This document shows, one piece after another, positions 16,250-27,418 of a stretch of 64,000 bases of DNA. The number at the start of each line of letters is the position of its first letter. Position 1 is the first letter of the stretch. Source of the stretch: Escherichia phage EPIMAM01. The translations under genes and the position numbers were made by a program. A model generated the notes under the pieces. That model ran no database searches and was not told the origin of the DNA. It saw only the letters and a list, made by a program, of their open reading frames with translations. The stretch lies in sequence record PQ493298; one strand, given 5' to 3'.

Positions 16250-16450
16250 ATGGTACAAAAATTAATGGCACTTGTCGATGCCATAAAAGGTAATAAAAAA
16301 CGTATAGCTTTTACTATTTCTGCTATGGTAGGAATTTTACTCTGGAATTTTATTTTATCACCAATTGCTATTGCTCATGGTGTTAATATTCCAGTAATTA
16401 CTCTTGATACATTCGTAGATTTAGCATTTGCTTTGGTTGGGTTAATTTAA
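16250..16450 (+). CDS. candidate small hydrophobic protein on the opposite strand
   Basis: Track ORF 66 aa; AAGGAGG 4 nt before ATG; two predicted hydrophobic helices; only plus-strand candidate in an intergenic region. Confidence 0.3.
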   Translation: MVQKLMALVDAIKGNKKRIAFTISAMVGILLWNFILSPIAIAHGVNIPVITLDTFVDLAFALVGLI

Positions 16451-20303: not shown

Positions 20304-20666
20304 TTAAAAGAATTTAAATTTTTTCTTTGACCTTTTATTAAATGCATCTTGTAGTTGCATTGTAATACATTTTTCTACATGAGGAGCTAACTCAGCTTTT
20401 CTTTCTTGGTCAAGAACAGCAAAGTCCATTACGACTTTTCCATCAACCCAATCTAATTTTGTCACATACACAATGTGTGTAGAACCATCTTCTAGTTTAA
20501 TGACAATCTCCTGGATAACATTTTCCATGGCAGATTTAATTATCTTAAGAGATTCATTAAAAAGACGTTCTTTTCTTTCTTCTTCCCCCTCCGAAGAGGG
20601 GGATTCATCGATAATTTCTAGATCTAAATCTAAATCATCTTTATTCATTAAATTCTTCCATATCAC
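20304..20666 (-). CDS. 40: gp40-position protein (head vertex assembly)
   Basis: Track ORF 120 aa; synteny between 41 and uvsX. Confidence 0.55.
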   Translation of the reverse strand: MIWKNLMNKDDLDLDLEIIDESPSSEGEEERKERLFNESLKIIKSAMENVIQEIVIKLEDGSTHIVYVTKLDWVDGKVVMDFAVLDQERKAELAPHVEKCITMQLQDAFNKRSKKKFKFF

Positions 20667-21822
20667 TTAACTGATCTAGGTCAGTTTCTAAATCAGCTGC
20701 TGATTTACTTTTACTTTCTGGAGATTTAAATTTTTCAACCTTTGAGTTAATCAATTCATCAACTTCAGCTTCAACAATTTCATTACTATCAATAGCACCT
20801 AACTGATAAGCACGTTTAATAGCATCTCGGAATGGCTGATGCTTAAATAAAGGACCCCAGAATGTAGTGCAATTGGTATCTTTTGCACGCCAAGATTTTT
20901 CTTCGCGAATCATCTCGCCAGTTTCTTCGTCAAGAAATTCACGAGCATACCAGCCATTTTTAGGTTTTACCACAAATCCTAATTCAAGAGCCATATCTAA
21001 CAATCCAGAATAAGGATCGATGCCACCGTCAAATTTAACATCAATAAAGAATTTACTTTTTTCTTTGACGGTACGAGATTTTTCTACATTTAGAACAAAT
21101 TGATACCCCTGAAGATCAGAACCATCTTTAATCTGGCGCTTACCGATAATGAATACAGTATCAGCCGAATACATTACGCCTGTACCACCTGTCATCACGG
21201 TTTTACTAAACATTTCAATTGTTTCAATTGTATGGTTAACCGCAACACACGGAATGTTTTTAATACTAAAATAAGGAGTAACAATACGGAATAATGACTT
21301 CAGTGATTTAGCACGAGTCATATCTGCCACAGATTTTTCATTCAAGGCATCTTCCGTTTCTTTCTTAGAAGCCATATTACCAATTGAGTCGATGAATACA
21401 ATAACTTTTTCACCACGCTCAATAGCTTCAAGCTGATTCACCATATCAATTTTCAGCTGTTCAACTGACTGAATTGGTGTATGAATTACTCGTTCCGGGT
21501 CAACTCCCATGGATCGCAAATAAGCTGGAGTAATACCAAATTCGCTATCATAGAATAGACATACCGCGCCAGGATATTTGTTCAAATACGCCGCAACCAT
21601 AGTCAAAGACATATTTGATTTAAAGTGTTTAGAAGGACCTGCAAAAATGGTTAAACCAGACTGCATACCACCATCAATTGCACCAGAAATAGCGATATTA
21701 AGCATTGGGATTTTTGTACGGATTACATCCTTTTCATTAAAGAATTTAGATGTAGTCAGTTCAGCAGTCATTTTAGAAGTGGAAGCTTTAATCAAACGGG
21801 ATTTTAAATCTGCAATAGACAT
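20641..21822 (-). CDS. uvsX: RecA-like recombinase UvsX
   Basis: Track ORF 393 aa; P-loop GPSKHFKS; N-terminus matches T4 UvsX. Confidence 0.92.
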   Translation of the reverse strand: MSIADLKSRLIKASTSKMTAELTTSKFFNEKDVIRTKIPMLNIAISGAIDGGMQSGLTIFAGPSKHFKSNMSLTMVAAYLNKYPGAVCLFYDSEFGITPAYLRSMGVDPERVIHTPIQSVEQLKIDMVNQLEAIERGEKVIVFIDSIGNMASKKETEDALNEKSVADMTRAKSLKSLFRIVTPYFSIKNIPCVAVNHTIETIEMFSKTVMTGGTGVMYSADTVFIIGKRQIKDGSDLQGYQFVLNVEKSRTVKEKSKFFIDVKFDGGIDPYSGLLDMALELGFVVKPKNGWYAREFLDEETGEMIREEKSWRAKDTNCTTFWGPLFKHQPFRDAIKRAYQLGAIDSNEIVEAEVDELINSKVEKFKSPESKSKSAADLETDLDQLSDMEEFNE

Positions 21823-21899
21823 TCATTTTTTCCATAGGCATCATTATATTTTCCTCACTGGTTAAAGATAAAGTAATTATAACACAATAAATTTAGGCA

Positions 21900-22748
21900 T
21901 TAATCAACTGCTATTGGATGAATAGCATTAAACTTATGAAATGCTTCTGATTTTTCTTTGCGCGAAACACACATGCGAAGAACCTTTAATGGCTCATCTT
22001 CTTCACCCAACGATTTTCTCTTTTCAATATTCGATGTTTTCCAACGAGCTTGCTCTGGAAACTCTCTATTGATTTGCTCAAGAGCTCTATTATGTTTTGA
22101 ATTACTACGAATTGAACTGCACCCGCCCGGAGCTTGCGCTTTTCCAGATACAACCAGATATTTGAACAGGGCCAAATGCGGATAACCTTGATTAATTAAA
22201 TTGAGAAATGCATACATATCTTCGCATAAATCAATTTTTCCATACCCAATTTGTTCTGTTGTAAGTTTCCCGAGGTCATACCAAGTATTCGTGAATCCAT
22301 ATGAATTTTCACGATAATTACCCCAAGATGAAGTAATTTTAAAAATTGGTAAACGAGCATGACCATGATAATACCCGCAATCCATGGCATCTTCAACGTA
22401 TTGAATCAATTCATAGAACTGTTCACGAGTTAACTGATTAATTTTATCTACGCAGCGACGATCATCTTTCTTTCGCATTGAACTCATACGAATAGTAGTA
22501 TCATCATCAATCATCCAAATTCGTTGACCTGCATACATATCAGTAATTGCTTTACGAGTACCAGCAATTCCATTAACATCATCAGGAATAGTTATAATTT
22601 TGGCTCTAGACCCGTAAGCGTCATAATAAGCTTTTTCTTCGTGTTCACGTACTACAATATGCGGTTCATAATCAGATGGAAACATATCAAGGGCAGAAAC
22701 TGCCCCTACGCGTTGATAGCTTGGAATTACGAATTGAATCATTTCCAC
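21900..22748 (-). CDS. putative GT-A fold glycosyltransferase (DNA glucosylation)
   Basis: Track ORF 282 aa; VIPSYQR and DDD (DxD) motifs; sits where T4 carries beta-gt but does not resemble it. Confidence 0.55.
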   Translation of the reverse strand: MEMIQFVIPSYQRVGAVSALDMFPSDYEPHIVVREHEEKAYYDAYGSRAKIITIPDDVNGIAGTRKAITDMYAGQRIWMIDDDTTIRMSSMRKKDDRRCVDKINQLTREQFYELIQYVEDAMDCGYYHGHARLPIFKITSSWGNYRENSYGFTNTWYDLGKLTTEQIGYGKIDLCEDMYAFLNLINQGYPHLALFKYLVVSGKAQAPGGCSSIRSNSKHNRALEQINREFPEQARWKTSNIEKRKSLGEEDEPLKVLRMCVSRKEKSEAFHKFNAIHPIAVD

Positions 22749-23479
22749 TCACCGTTATAATCTTTTTTCGCAATATGAGTTTCGCCAGTTTTCCACCAAT
22801 GGTCAACCAAATAAAAATGACGGGAATACACATGAAGACTTCCGACATTCCATATAATGGAACCTGCTTTATACTGACGAGTTGAATCACCTGCATTCAA
22901 ATCAGATACTAATTTATCTAGTACGTATTTTTGCCATGCATAATCATTACGGAATCCGAAGACCACGTCATTTGAACGCATGCTTACTACTGCATTGACT
23001 TTCTTATCACGAATCAGATACTGTACTGTATTCGTACACATGAAATCTGACATACCATCTTTATTGTAGTCAAACTGCATGGATGGACGAGTATAAATCA
23101 TGATACCACGTCGAGAATCAGGATTTTGACCAAGTTCAGCTAAACACATATCATACTGGGCATAGTTATCTTCTGACCAGATGGCCCAACCATAATTCGA
23201 GTTAATTTCTCCTTTAGAAGATGATACCTGTTGCCAAATCTTCGGCGTTTCACCCGGAATATCTTTAACAAACAAACTTTTAGATTTATACCATTCAAGT
23301 TCACGCTGAATGTATTCATCATTAAGAGCGCCAAAAATAAACGGTTCATCTGCTACAAATGATGCGCCAATAATTTCAATAGTTTTAACGCCAGTTTTAT
23401 CAATTACGAAATCTTTTTCCTTTAACGCAATTCCCAAATGAAGACGAGTTTCTTCAACTGTCAAAGAGTCATTAATCAT
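22739..23479 (-). CDS. 42: dCMP hydroxymethylase
   Basis: Track ORF 246 aa; thymidylate-synthase-like; matches T4 gp42. Confidence 0.92.
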   Translation of the reverse strand: MINDSLTVEETRLHLGIALKEKDFVIDKTGVKTIEIIGASFVADEPFIFGALNDEYIQRELEWYKSKSLFVKDIPGETPKIWQQVSSSKGEINSNYGWAIWSEDNYAQYDMCLAELGQNPDSRRGIMIYTRPSMQFDYNKDGMSDFMCTNTVQYLIRDKKVNAVVSMRSNDVVFGFRNDYAWQKYVLDKLVSDLNAGDSTRQYKAGSIIWNVGSLHVYSRHFYLVDHWWKTGETHIAKKDYNGEWK

Positions 23480-23486
23480 TTAAACC

Positions 23487-23636
23487 TCAATTGATGCATT
23501 CATATTTAACTTGTAACAGTAATAAACCCCAACCTATAATAAGTGTCGGAATCATACAAGGAACCGTTACGCTATAGTATATACTTATTATAATCATCAA
23601 GATTAAAAGCAATACTGCTAAAATTTTGCTTTTCAT
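23487..23636 (-). CDS. candidate small hydrophobic peptide
   Basis: 49-aa ORF; ATGA overlap with the imm stop; but it also contains a middle-promoter-like element, so it may be non-coding. Confidence 0.3.
   Translation of the reverse strand: MKSKILAVLLLILMIIISIYYSVTVPCMIPTLIIGWGLLLLQVKYECIN
23587..23612 (-). promoter_or_regulatory. middle-promoter-like element upstream of gene 42
   Basis: MotA-box-like TTGCTTTT, 12 nt spacer, TATAAT on the minus strand. Confidence 0.45.
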
Positions 23637-23884
23637 TCCTTCTCTCTGATGATAATTACTTGGTTTTGCTGTGCAGATTTTTTAGTTTCACCCGCAATTG
23701 ACCAAATAAATGTAATAAACCAACCAATAATTGACCAGTTAAACAGTAAAGATGTAAAAAAGATTCCTACTGTCGATTTTGACCCACGCATCAAGGCGAT
23801 GAACCACGGAAGCATGTATATAATAATAGCCAACACGCCTGAAACTAAAACCATAAAAATTGAACCCGCTACTAAAGTTTCCAT
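23633..23884 (-). CDS. imm: immunity to superinfection membrane protein
   Basis: Track ORF 83 aa; two hydrophobic helices; size and position match T4 Imm. Confidence 0.65.
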   Translation of the reverse strand: METLVAGSIFMVLVSGVLAIIIYMLPWFIALMRGSKSTVGIFFTSLLFNWSIIGWFITFIWSIAGETKKSAQQNQVIIIREKE

Positions 23885-23891
23885 CTTTTCC

Positions 23892-24272
23892 TCACTTAGT
23901 CAAATTTTTTACACATGAATTATAAGAATTCACTACATACTCCATCGGAGCATTTTTACCTGTACGCCATTGGTAATTATTAGCCCAATTAGCCCAAAGT
24001 TCGGCGCAGTAGTTTTCAATTTTTTCTTCGCGTGTAATTACATCTGAATTACGATATGCTTGAGCAGATTCATCTGGACGAATAGCTTCGTCAAAATTCG
24101 CCTGCATTTGTTCTACTGTCTGTTTTGGAGCTTCTTTATAACACTTGACGTTAGGATTATAAAATTTGCTTGAACAGTTTACAATTTTTCCTACATCAGA
24201 TTGATTTACTACCGGTCCTTGAGCTACACAGCCAGTAAGACCCAATGTAATAACCAAAATAGCAATTTTCAT
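23892..24272 (-). CDS. lipoprotein
   Basis: Track ORF 126 aa; signal peptide with lipobox LTGC. Confidence 0.55.
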   Translation of the reverse strand: MKIAILVITLGLTGCVAQGPVVNQSDVGKIVNCSSKFYNPNVKCYKEAPKQTVEQMQANFDEAIRPDESAQAYRNSDVITREEKIENYCAELWANWANNYQWRTGKNAPMEYVVNSYNSCVKNLTK

Positions 24273-24282
24273 AATAATTTCC

Positions 24283-24540
24283 TCAAATACAAGTAGTAAT
24301 TACTCCAGTAGTGCTTGCACAGGTATTACCTAATTGAACACCAAGCGTTCCATTAGTATTCATATGAAGATTATCATCAATTTTTGTTGATACTTTACCA
24401 TTCATGTGAATAACAGTATTAGATTCAATCACATTCTGAGTGTCATTTTCAATATCAATAAATGGAACAGCTGCTAATGCAACTAGAACAACTGCTAATG
24501 CAACTAAACACGCTGCTAAACAACCATAAACAATTTTCAT
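24283..24540 (-). CDS. small membrane-anchored protein
   Basis: Track ORF 24283..24729 trimmed to internal ATG (MKIVYG) with GGAG SD; N-terminal TM helix; the longer start runs through promoter and terminator. Confidence 0.5.
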   Translation of the reverse strand: MKIVYGCLAACLVALAVVLVALAAVPFIDIENDTQNVIESNTVIHMNGKVSTKIDDNLHMNTNGTLGVQLGNTCASTTGVITTCI

Positions 24541-24574
24541 TTTATTCTCCAAATCCGTATCAGTTGATAGTTGT

Positions 24575-24604
24575 ATAGTACCATGGACGAACAGGGATGT
24601 AAAC
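24575..24604 (-). promoter_or_regulatory. T4-type early promoter with conserved leader
   Basis: GTTTAC, 18 nt, TACTAT; 47-bp promoter-leader identical to 51331..51377. Confidence 0.6.
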
Positions 24605-24692
24605 AGTTTTGTGAAAAAATTTTTAATGAATTTAAAGGACCTAGAATCATCTATTTTTCCTAAGTATAGATTTATATTACTTGTATGAAAAA

Positions 24693-24708
24693 GGGACCCG
24701 GAGGTCCC
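24693..24708 (-). terminator. hairpin downstream of gene 43
   Basis: gggacccggaggtccc stem-loop. Confidence 0.55.
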
Positions 24709-24721
24709 TAGATTTATTCTA

Positions 24722-27418
24722 TCAGCCAAACAGGAAGTCTAACGAAGCTTTTTCCTCATAGTCCATACCTGCCGATTCACACATACCCGCAAGAGGTTTA
24801 ACAAACGATTTTTGGAACAAAGTTGAGTAGTCAATCCAAGACAGTACGTCAGAACGAATTTCTTTTGGAAGTTCCGTACCCGATGGCCAAGCAATGCACT
24901 TGTCACCAAATGGATTTCCTTCACGTAATGGAAGAACCATTACCTTATTTCCATCCAAAATTGGAGCTACACCTAAACCGCTAACAGCTCGACGATAAGT
25001 TAGCACACCACGAATATGGAATGGACATTTAAATCCTGGCCAACCTTTATCATCATATTTCGCTATATCGTTCGCAGTTTTTACTTCAGCAATAACTTTA
25101 TAGTCAAGTTGACGATATTCTTTCTCAAAGTTCTTGTAGTATTCTTGGACAGACTCTTCACCTTCCTGAAGAATACGACGAATACTTTCTTCGAGAGCTT
25201 CTTGCACTGCTTTTGGTGTTGAGCTCTGCTGAGTTTCCATACCCATGATTTTTAGATGCGGTTCGGCAAATCGCTTATCTTCCATATCATAAACGTTCAG
25301 AGCATAACGTTTTTTCGCTTTCCAAAATCCACCAACACCCTTTGAACCGAGCGGAGGGCAAGAAATAGCTTCACGGTCCATATGCATCAGATGCTCGCGG
25401 TTATTCATATAATCACATAACTCACGATATGCAACATCAATCATAGGTTCCATCTTTTTCTTACCGAATTGATTCATGAATTCAACTAAATCATTTTGTT
25501 CTTTAAAGCGGTCAAGACCTACTTTTTCAATAACTTTATCTACACAAACATATACCGAATCAGTATCACCTGCTGCGATGAAATCTTCACCATTAGTTCC
25601 ACATACTTTATTCAGATATTCATTAATTTTGCGAGCAATCCATTGAATACCGACTTGACCGAAAATTGTGATAGCAGTAGCATTTCGCAAATCATAGTAG
25701 CGGAAATGAATATTACCAAGAGCACCATAAAGACTGTTAATAAGAATTTTACGGTTCAGCTGATTTGTGTTAGCAAGCGTAGCTGCTTTTTCACATTCTT
25801 CGATCAGACTATTAAGAACAGATTCAGTGTAATTCGATAATTCGTTTAAAAAATCATCACTGAACTTAACATATCGTTCAACTTCTGGTTTAGTTGAGCA
25901 AGACCCTGCACCTTTCATAATAATCTTTTTAATAGCTTCGGCATTCATTTCTTCCGCGAACATTTTCTTTTTCCAATCTTTACGCTGGAAAAATACTTTA
26001 GCGATTTCCTTTGGAATGATACCTTCTTGGTGCTTATCATACATCCATCCATTCGGAGAACAAGAATATTCATCACTTGGCTTAGGAGCTGTTCCTGCGA
26101 TATATTCATGAATTGGATGAACTTTAAACTGTCCACGAATAGTCTCAGGACTAATGTTAACCTGACGAATAATGCTAGGATACAGAGACGTCAAGTCAAA
26201 ACTCATAATGTATCGACGAGCAATCGGTTTAGGTTCAAACACAAATGCACCCGGAAAACTCTGTTTAACGTGCGAACCTTGTTGAGGAATAACCTTATGT
26301 TCACCTTTCAGTGAGTTAAAAATAATAGCATCCCAAGTTTTAATAGGACTCATTACACCAGAAAAAGGCATTTTAGCGTAATAGGACATACTTAAAACTA
26401 GATCGATAAACCCACGAATTTTATCAATTGCTTGAACTGATTCTACGTCAATGATGTTATAACTAATGTATCGTTGATGATTAGTCTCACGAAGTTTATT
26501 AATAGGACCATCGTACGGCAATTTACCTTTTTTGGTTTCATGCTGAGCAACTGATTCCAAAGAGAACGATGGCAAATTAGTAAATGCGAATTTCTTGTAC
26601 AAATCTAAATAATCAAGAATAGATACGCCATCAATAGAATAAATTTCTTTGCTACCGTACATATTTTGAATTAGTTTAGATTTTACTCGACCGATTGGAG
26701 AGAAGCGTTTCATACTACGTTCACCGAGAACCATTTTAACACGATTCATGATATACGGAACGTCAAATCCCTCAATATTCCAACCGGTAAAAATAGCAGG
26801 TCGTTTCTGTTCCCAGAGATTAATATATTCCATGAGCATATCACGCTCATTATCAAATGGCATATAAATTACTCGGTCAAGAATTTCTTGAGGAACTTCA
26901 TCACCACCTTCACAGTCAAGCTTAGCAGCTAACTTTGCATCCCATTTTGATACTGAACCGTACATTGAATTCAACAAATCAAAGACGTAAAAACGGTCGT
27001 CAATTGAATCATAATGAGTGATAGCATCAATTTCATATTCTGCTTTCATTGGGTCAGGAAATTTATCACCAGTAACCTCAATGTCACAGTTAGCTACACG
27101 AACAAATTTTCGGTCATAAACAATTTCTGAACCATATGTATCACTGATATAAGCGAGTTTAAAATCGTTCATACCGAGAGCTTCGAGACCGATGTCTTCC
27201 ATTCGTTTCATCCAATCTCGTGCATCTTTCATTGATGGAAATTTTTGAGGAGCACAATTTTTACCATAAATGTCTTTGTATTTTGACTCTTCCTTACAAT
27301 GCCTAAACATAGTCGGAAGATATTCTACTTCACGGGTACGTTCCTTTCCATTTTCATCAATATAACGTTCAACAATATTATTTCCGACTGTTTCGATAGA
27401 GATATAAAATTCTTTCAT
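24722..27418 (-). CDS. 43: family B DNA polymerase
   Basis: Track ORF 898 aa; exo motif CDIEV and polymerase motif GDTDS; matches T4 gp43. Confidence 0.95.
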   Translation of the reverse strand: MKEFYISIETVGNNIVERYIDENGKERTREVEYLPTMFRHCKEESKYKDIYGKNCAPQKFPSMKDARDWMKRMEDIGLEALGMNDFKLAYISDTYGSEIVYDRKFVRVANCDIEVTGDKFPDPMKAEYEIDAITHYDSIDDRFYVFDLLNSMYGSVSKWDAKLAAKLDCEGGDEVPQEILDRVIYMPFDNERDMLMEYINLWEQKRPAIFTGWNIEGFDVPYIMNRVKMVLGERSMKRFSPIGRVKSKLIQNMYGSKEIYSIDGVSILDYLDLYKKFAFTNLPSFSLESVAQHETKKGKLPYDGPINKLRETNHQRYISYNIIDVESVQAIDKIRGFIDLVLSMSYYAKMPFSGVMSPIKTWDAIIFNSLKGEHKVIPQQGSHVKQSFPGAFVFEPKPIARRYIMSFDLTSLYPSIIRQVNISPETIRGQFKVHPIHEYIAGTAPKPSDEYSCSPNGWMYDKHQEGIIPKEIAKVFFQRKDWKKKMFAEEMNAEAIKKIIMKGAGSCSTKPEVERYVKFSDDFLNELSNYTESVLNSLIEECEKAATLANTNQLNRKILINSLYGALGNIHFRYYDLRNATAITIFGQVGIQWIARKINEYLNKVCGTNGEDFIAAGDTDSVYVCVDKVIEKVGLDRFKEQNDLVEFMNQFGKKKMEPMIDVAYRELCDYMNNREHLMHMDREAISCPPLGSKGVGGFWKAKKRYALNVYDMEDKRFAEPHLKIMGMETQQSSTPKAVQEALEESIRRILQEGEESVQEYYKNFEKEYRQLDYKVIAEVKTANDIAKYDDKGWPGFKCPFHIRGVLTYRRAVSGLGVAPILDGNKVMVLPLREGNPFGDKCIAWPSGTELPKEIRSDVLSWIDYSTLFQKSFVKPLAGMCESAGMDYEEKASLDFLFG

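Follow-up and report, generated by a model that had tools for sequence, protein, structure and literature searches.

The gene between gene 42 and uvsX in Escherichia phage EPIMAM01: a probable orthologue of the T2/T6 beta-glucosyl-HMC-alpha-glucosyltransferase

Our analysis of a 64,000-nucleotide stretch of the genome of Escherichia phage EPIMAM01 (the whole of which is called the window here) indicates, with a probability that we would put at about 0.9, that the gene flanked by gene 42 and uvsX is orthologous to ba-gt of phages T2 and T6, and that its product is a GT-A-fold enzyme, presumably inverting and metal-dependent, with a predicted part in the gentiobiosyl-hmC pathway. The identity of the gene, its protein family, fold and conserved motifs, as well as its synteny and the presence of its partner genes, were all established in our analysis. 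Every element of this finding has already been documented, and what the window carries is an ordinary, characterised gene in its usual place. The earlier note on this DNA had implied that the locus was unusual, but a ba-gt gene in this slot is, in fact, the common arrangement among Tequatroviruses, and it is T4 that represents the exception.

Gene boundaries and relatives

The list of open reading frames contains an uninterrupted minus-strand frame at 21900-22748, which amounts to 282 aa when counted from a GTG codon. The likely start of ba-gt is, however, the ATG at 22742, which leaves a CDS of 280 aa plus stop (Table 1), because this ATG overlaps the stop codon of gene 42 in the form ATGA and is preceded, 5 nt upstream, by a Shine-Dalgarno-like GGTGAG (the sequence reads GGTGAG-TGGAA-ATGA), because the same start is annotated in the PBM-1, T2 and RB32 records, and because homologues with 47-78% identity have their first residue at the same MIQ/IQ or within 2 residues of it. 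The GTG start, with its 10-nt overlap, is merely the longest frame that can be called mechanically. The placement of the frame between uvsX and gene 42 in the earlier note was thus correct, while the length of 282 aa, the GTG start and the 10-nt overlap that it gave are replaced here by 280 aa, ATG and 4 nt. T2 has the ATGA overlap as well, and this arrangement, typical of translational coupling, suggests that translation of ba-gt could be coupled to that of gene 42.

Table 1. Features of the ba-gt locus and its partner genes in the window
Feature	Position	Strand	Basis
ba-gt / TAGT CDS, beta-glucosyl-HMC-alpha-glucosyltransferase, T2/T6 type (probable)	21900..22742	-	ORF, identity, Pfam, PHROG
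ATGA overlap, ba-gt start ATG / gene 42 stop TGA, 4 nt	22739..22742	-	Direct sequence reading
IPSYQR loop after strand beta1 (model strand 3-7), codons 6-11	22710..22727	-	Alignment A3 columns; putative nucleotide-sugar binding
DDD, DxD metal/UDP-sugar binding motif, codons 79-81	22500..22508	-	D at each position in 47/47
D175 (Asp in CEDMY), candidate catalytic base, codon 175	22218..22220	-	D in 42/47 family members
Gene 42, dCMP hydroxymethylase, hmC precursor	22739..23479	-	PHROG 160 (thymidylate synthase family) at 1e-65
uvsX, downstream flank of ba-gt	20641..21822	-	PHROG 97 at 1e-109
alpha-gt, DNA alpha-glucosyltransferase, 400 aa	34148..35350	-	PHROG 2888 at 3e-221; PDB 1xv5 (T4 alpha-GT) at 2e-255

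The DNA of the gene matches 479 phage records, with a query coverage of at least 80% in 474 and a nucleotide identity of at least 90% in all but five. These records belong mostly to Escherichia and Shigella Tequatroviruses, and many of them are annotated as beta-glucosyl-HMC-alpha-glucosyltransferase. Because the frame is conserved in those 474 records and shows 39 synonymous and 5 non-synonymous codon differences when compared to the T2 gene, it is not a chance ORF. Closest of all is the record of Escherichia phage PBM-1, which differs by 2 synonymous changes within the gene, encodes a 'glucosyl transferase' with 100% amino acid identity to the window protein and is 99.3% identical over 24 kb; more generally, Tequatrovirus genomes share 97-99% identity with the window over a stretch of 24 kb. 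The proteins of T2 and T6 are both 98% identical to that of the window, the former without gaps and with 5 substitutions, the latter over its annotated part and with 6-7 substitutions, none of which affects a family-invariant column except for the T2-specific position 11 (R in the window, H in T2). The length of 280 aa, the slot between gene 42 and uvsX and the alpha-gt partner are also shared with the T2/T6 gene, and the proposal that the window might encode the T2/T6-type enzyme was therefore well founded. The T2/T6 orthologue is variously labelled ggt, b-gt or ba-gt in MH550421, MH751506, LC348380 and BASEL Bas44, and the original cloning of the T2 and T6 genes was reportedly the work of Winkler and Rueger in 1993.

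At the family level, the protein matches Pfam PF20691 (TAGT) with 38.8 bits against a gathering cut-off of 27.5, from position 2 to position 205 of the 205 in the profile and across residues 3-207 of the protein, and it also matches PHROG 842 at 1e-88. Matches to Pfam RNA_binding (E = 0.15, below the cut-off) and to PHROGs 4519 and 16546 (E > 0.01) were discarded as noise. The family, said to be the subject of a 2013 paper by Iyer et al., owes the name TAGT (TET-associated glycosyltransferase) to an association with TET/JBP dioxygenases that the Pfam model does not require, and no such dioxygenase neighbour was found beside ba-gt.

A GC-rich hairpin of 7-9 bp (GGGGCAG-TTT-CTGCCCT, 22688-22708, minus strand), flagged as terminator-like, is located inside the gene at codons 12-18. 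The stem sequence is unchanged in T2, in T6 and in the homologues with 78% and 65% identity, while the loop and nearby synonymous sites vary, and the record of phage DalCa has a 'terminator' feature annotated under a 51-nt match that includes the hairpin. The surrounding 91 nt fold no better than shuffled sequences (z = -1.34), and a scan of 21500-24000 for promoters and terminators returned no excess over shuffles (13 vs 10.9 and 2 vs 1.4, respectively). The hairpin may function as an RNA element in the expression of ba-gt, although the case is a thin one, with only about 3 wobble positions.

Fold and conserved residues

Searching the PDB with the protein sequence returned nothing meaningful (best E = 0.76) and, because the family has no solved structure, catalytic roles are assigned to individual residues by inference only. 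The AlphaFold model built from the single sequence was unusable (pLDDT 40.9). Two rounds of homologue search yielded 50 relatives, nearly all with PF20691, 47 of which were taken into an alignment (A3) where identity falls as low as 13-25%, and AF2 supplied with these 47 sequences returned a confident model (pLDDT 93.4, pTM 0.91). The modelled protein is a small single-domain GT-A enzyme with a Rossmann-like alpha/beta/alpha arrangement and a DxD motif after a central strand, the features by which membership in the GT-A class is recognised. The model, along with the Pfam TAGT and PHROG 842 matches, bears out the earlier claim of a GT-A-fold glycosyltransferase, and the VIPSYQR N-terminus and the DDD motif are also present as they had been described.

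In the alignment, R11, R63, D79, D80 and D81 are invariant, and I6, P7, R32, Y39, T62 and R212, as well as Y9, nearly so. In the model, strand E74-78 leads directly into DDD, which is the canonical position of a DxD motif. By analogy with GT2 enzymes, we assume that the loop after beta1 and R63 hold UDP, and that DDD holds the metal and the diphosphate. We likewise take D175 to resemble the xED-type motif of GT2 enzymes, and by analogy this residue is probably the base of an inverting GT-A transfer, a mechanism that would fit the formation of a beta linkage from UDP-alpha-glucose. The Pfam TAGT match leaves out part of a conserved C-terminal segment, GGCS..R212 (residues about 200-280).

Bacterial GT-A enzymes of the GT2 family (TarP, TarS, SpsA, K4CP, AvpGT and WrtF) share with the window protein the fold, the DxD after the fourth strand and the N-terminal loop after beta1, but identity is 7-15% in the top matches, and the acceptor of the window enzyme would be a glucose borne by DNA. 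The resemblance to GT2 is structural only and does not extend to sequence profiles, and no match to PF00535 (Glycos_transf_2) was seen in the Pfam profile search of the protein even at E <= 10. Ramirez-Chamorro et al. (bioRxiv 2025; NAR 2026, PMC13216743) modelled the T6 enzyme, placed it among GT-A proteins as a sister of GT2 and identified it with PF20691.

Genomic setting and predicted modification pathway

Starting from rIIA, the minus-strand genes of the window are arranged as in T4. Gene 42 is annotated as dCMP hydroxymethylase in PBM-1, T4 and T6, and the 77-nt spacer between uvsX and ba-gt (21823-21899) holds neither segA nor beta-gt. The corresponding interval in T4 does hold the 351-aa beta-gt gene, as the earlier note had stated, and in addition segA, which lies between uvsX and beta-gt. 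The T4 enzyme resembles the one predicted here in its slot, in its use of an hmC-derived DNA acceptor and in its beta linkage; it differs, however, in having a GT-B fold and PF09198 where the window protein has GT-A, and in taking hmC as its acceptor instead of alpha-glucosyl-hmC. The lack of resemblance between the two proteins, previously put forward, was confirmed, as the best BLASTP E value between them was 3.3 and the Pfam search of the window protein gave no PF09198 match. No homologue was found by tblastn with T4 beta-gt within the 64-kb window (the genome is roughly 165 kb), and alpha-gt is present (Table 1), so that the window displays the T2/T6 configuration. Full-length identity, the location between gene 42 and uvsX, and the presence of the acceptor-making genes 42 and alpha-gt all assign the gene to ba-gt. 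Elsewhere in the region, a small gene at 24283-24729 (minus strand) lies between imm.1 and the DNA polymerase gene; in the same gap, PBM-1 carries a 258-nt gene for a hypothetical protein and T2 a 252-nt gene (RB51ORF048-like), and T4 has none annotated.

The slot is filled differently in a T4-like metagenomic phage (Logan ERR10491208, contig L013), where a TAGT 65% identical to that of the window also sits immediately downstream of gene 42 but, unlike in the window, is followed by a beta-gt homologue (PF09198) and then by uvsX (L013:2267-6231). An L013-like arrangement looks as if it had been reduced in two ways, to beta-gt alone in T4 and to the TAGT alone in the window. In the survey of 753 phages in PMC13216743, the vast majority have a TAGT along with either an alpha-GT or a beta-GT, and alpha-GT and beta-GT occur together in only six, T4 included; some phages carry solitary TAGT homologues and neither alpha- nor beta-GT, and the function of TAGTs outside T2/T6 is, in the words of those authors, 'yet to be defined'.

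For enzymatic activity, linkage and phenotype we rely on the literature on near-identical proteins. On these grounds, gene 42 would supply hydroxymethyl-dCMP, so that DNA is built with hmC, and alpha-gt would add an alpha-linked glucose to hmC in the DNA, creating the acceptor for ba-gt, which would in turn transfer a second glucose from UDP-glucose onto the alpha-glucose through a beta(1->6) linkage and generate gentiobiosyl-hmC. The reaction would be inverting and metal-dependent, with metal and UDP bound by DDD, the nucleotide by R63 and the IPSYQR loop, and with D175 as the probable base. Given its T2/T6 configuration, the phage is expected to have DNA with hmC, alpha-glucosyl-hmC and gentiobiosyl-hmC, and to be devoid of beta-glucosyl-hmC. 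In the Durham-collection paper (PMC13390438), Tequatroviruses with alpha-gt and a TAGT were reported by LC-MS to contain gentiobiosyl-hmC and no beta-glucosyl-hmC. The gentiobiosyl-hmC share was about 40% or 67% in the two Durham groups, about 5% in T2 and about 72% in T6, and the last two differ to this degree even though their enzymes are 98% identical.

Alternative readings and allelic differences

Because the gene occupies the genomic slot of T4 beta-gt, it could be argued that its product is a primary transferase that replaces that enzyme and places beta-glucose straight onto unmodified hmC, also considering that an inverting-type GT-A enzyme would form a beta linkage and that solitary TAGT homologues exist in phages without alpha- or beta-GT. 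We regard this as very improbable: phages with alpha-gt plus TAGT yield no beta-glucosyl-hmC by LC-MS, T6 in which ba-gt was deleted behaves, according to the paper on Brig1, as carrying alpha-glucosyl-hmC only, and a TAGT and a beta-gt homologue are found side by side in L013, which means that they do not stand in for each other in a single role. It is scarcely credible, in turn, that the enzyme uses a sugar or an acceptor other than those of the T2/T6 enzyme and so produces a new hypermodification. The TAGT family is indeed diverse, judging from the lowest identities in alignment A3, and arabinose is used by other T-even relatives, but only 5-7 substitutions separate the window protein from those of T2 and T6, all invariant residues are intact, the same partner genes are found in the window, and hundreds of Tequatroviruses, including some shown to contain gentiobiosyl-hmC, have alleles that are nearly the same. 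The suggestion in the earlier note of a different sugar transferase is unsupported.

A further scenario is that the ba-gt of this phage has little or no activity, leaving the phage DNA essentially alpha-glucosylated only, either T2-like or null. The low gentiobiosyl-hmC content of T2 and the lesions in laboratory T2 and T6 records (R11H, Q10amber, and DDD to DD) would be in line with it, but the window allele is intact, with Q10, R11, DDD and every invariant residue in place, its protein is the same as that of PBM-1, and H11 is confined to T2 and SV76, all of which make an inactive or weak enzyme improbable here. A functional orthologue of the T2/T6 ba-gt is the reading that we retain.

The R11H change is present in all T2 records and in SV76, in total 8 of the 497 phage records with a match to a 51-nt stretch of the gene (codon 11 is 22710-22712 in the window; in T2 AP018813 it is L004:5093-5095 of our collection, and likewise in L006 and L007). 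R11 is kept in RB32 and Bas44, the one-mismatch neighbours that were checked, and pattern scans of IMG/VR, where matches were few, found the H11 allele in 0 contigs and the R11 allele in 3. Two distinct T6 genome sequences are in our collection, and each has a private ba-gt lesion, unique in the collection and probably disabling. In MH550421, codon 10 is changed from CAG to TAG, an amber codon (L003:4951-4953), and the CDS is annotated from M20 because of it; in AP018814 / RefSeq NC_054907 (L005, about 2735-2743), GATGATGAT has become GATGAT through the loss of one GAT, which turns DDD into DD, and this DD form is the RefSeq T6 protein that serves as 'T6 TAGT' in the literature.

R11H may be a natural hypomorph in T2, where it correlates with the low gentiobiose content. 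We are doubtful, but consider it possible, that near-identical ba-gt alleles differ in activity, that R11H would explain the 5% of T2 vs the 72% of T6, and that the window carries a high-activity, T6-like allele, a reading suggested by R11, by the intact DDD and by the absence of dam from the window. No dam gene lies between gene 56 and gene 61 (16272-16446), and tblastn with T4 Dam gave no match in the 64 kb. Among the Durham Tequatroviruses, those whose compared region contains no Dam-like gene are the group with about two-thirds gentiobiosyl-hmC (PMC13390438).

Whether the hmC of such a phage carries one glucose or gentiobiose is decided by ba-gt, and the DNA composition predicted here would alter how sensitive the phage is to defences directed at particular sugars, the Brig1 glycosylase among them. 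Brig1 acts on alpha-glucosyl-hmC and spares T6 DNA, which is mainly gentiobiosyl-hmC, while GmrSD-type enzymes cut both. The phage from which the window derives would be of the common T2/T6 modification type and not of the rare T4 type, which is not a discovery but is useful for annotation and for the prediction of host range.
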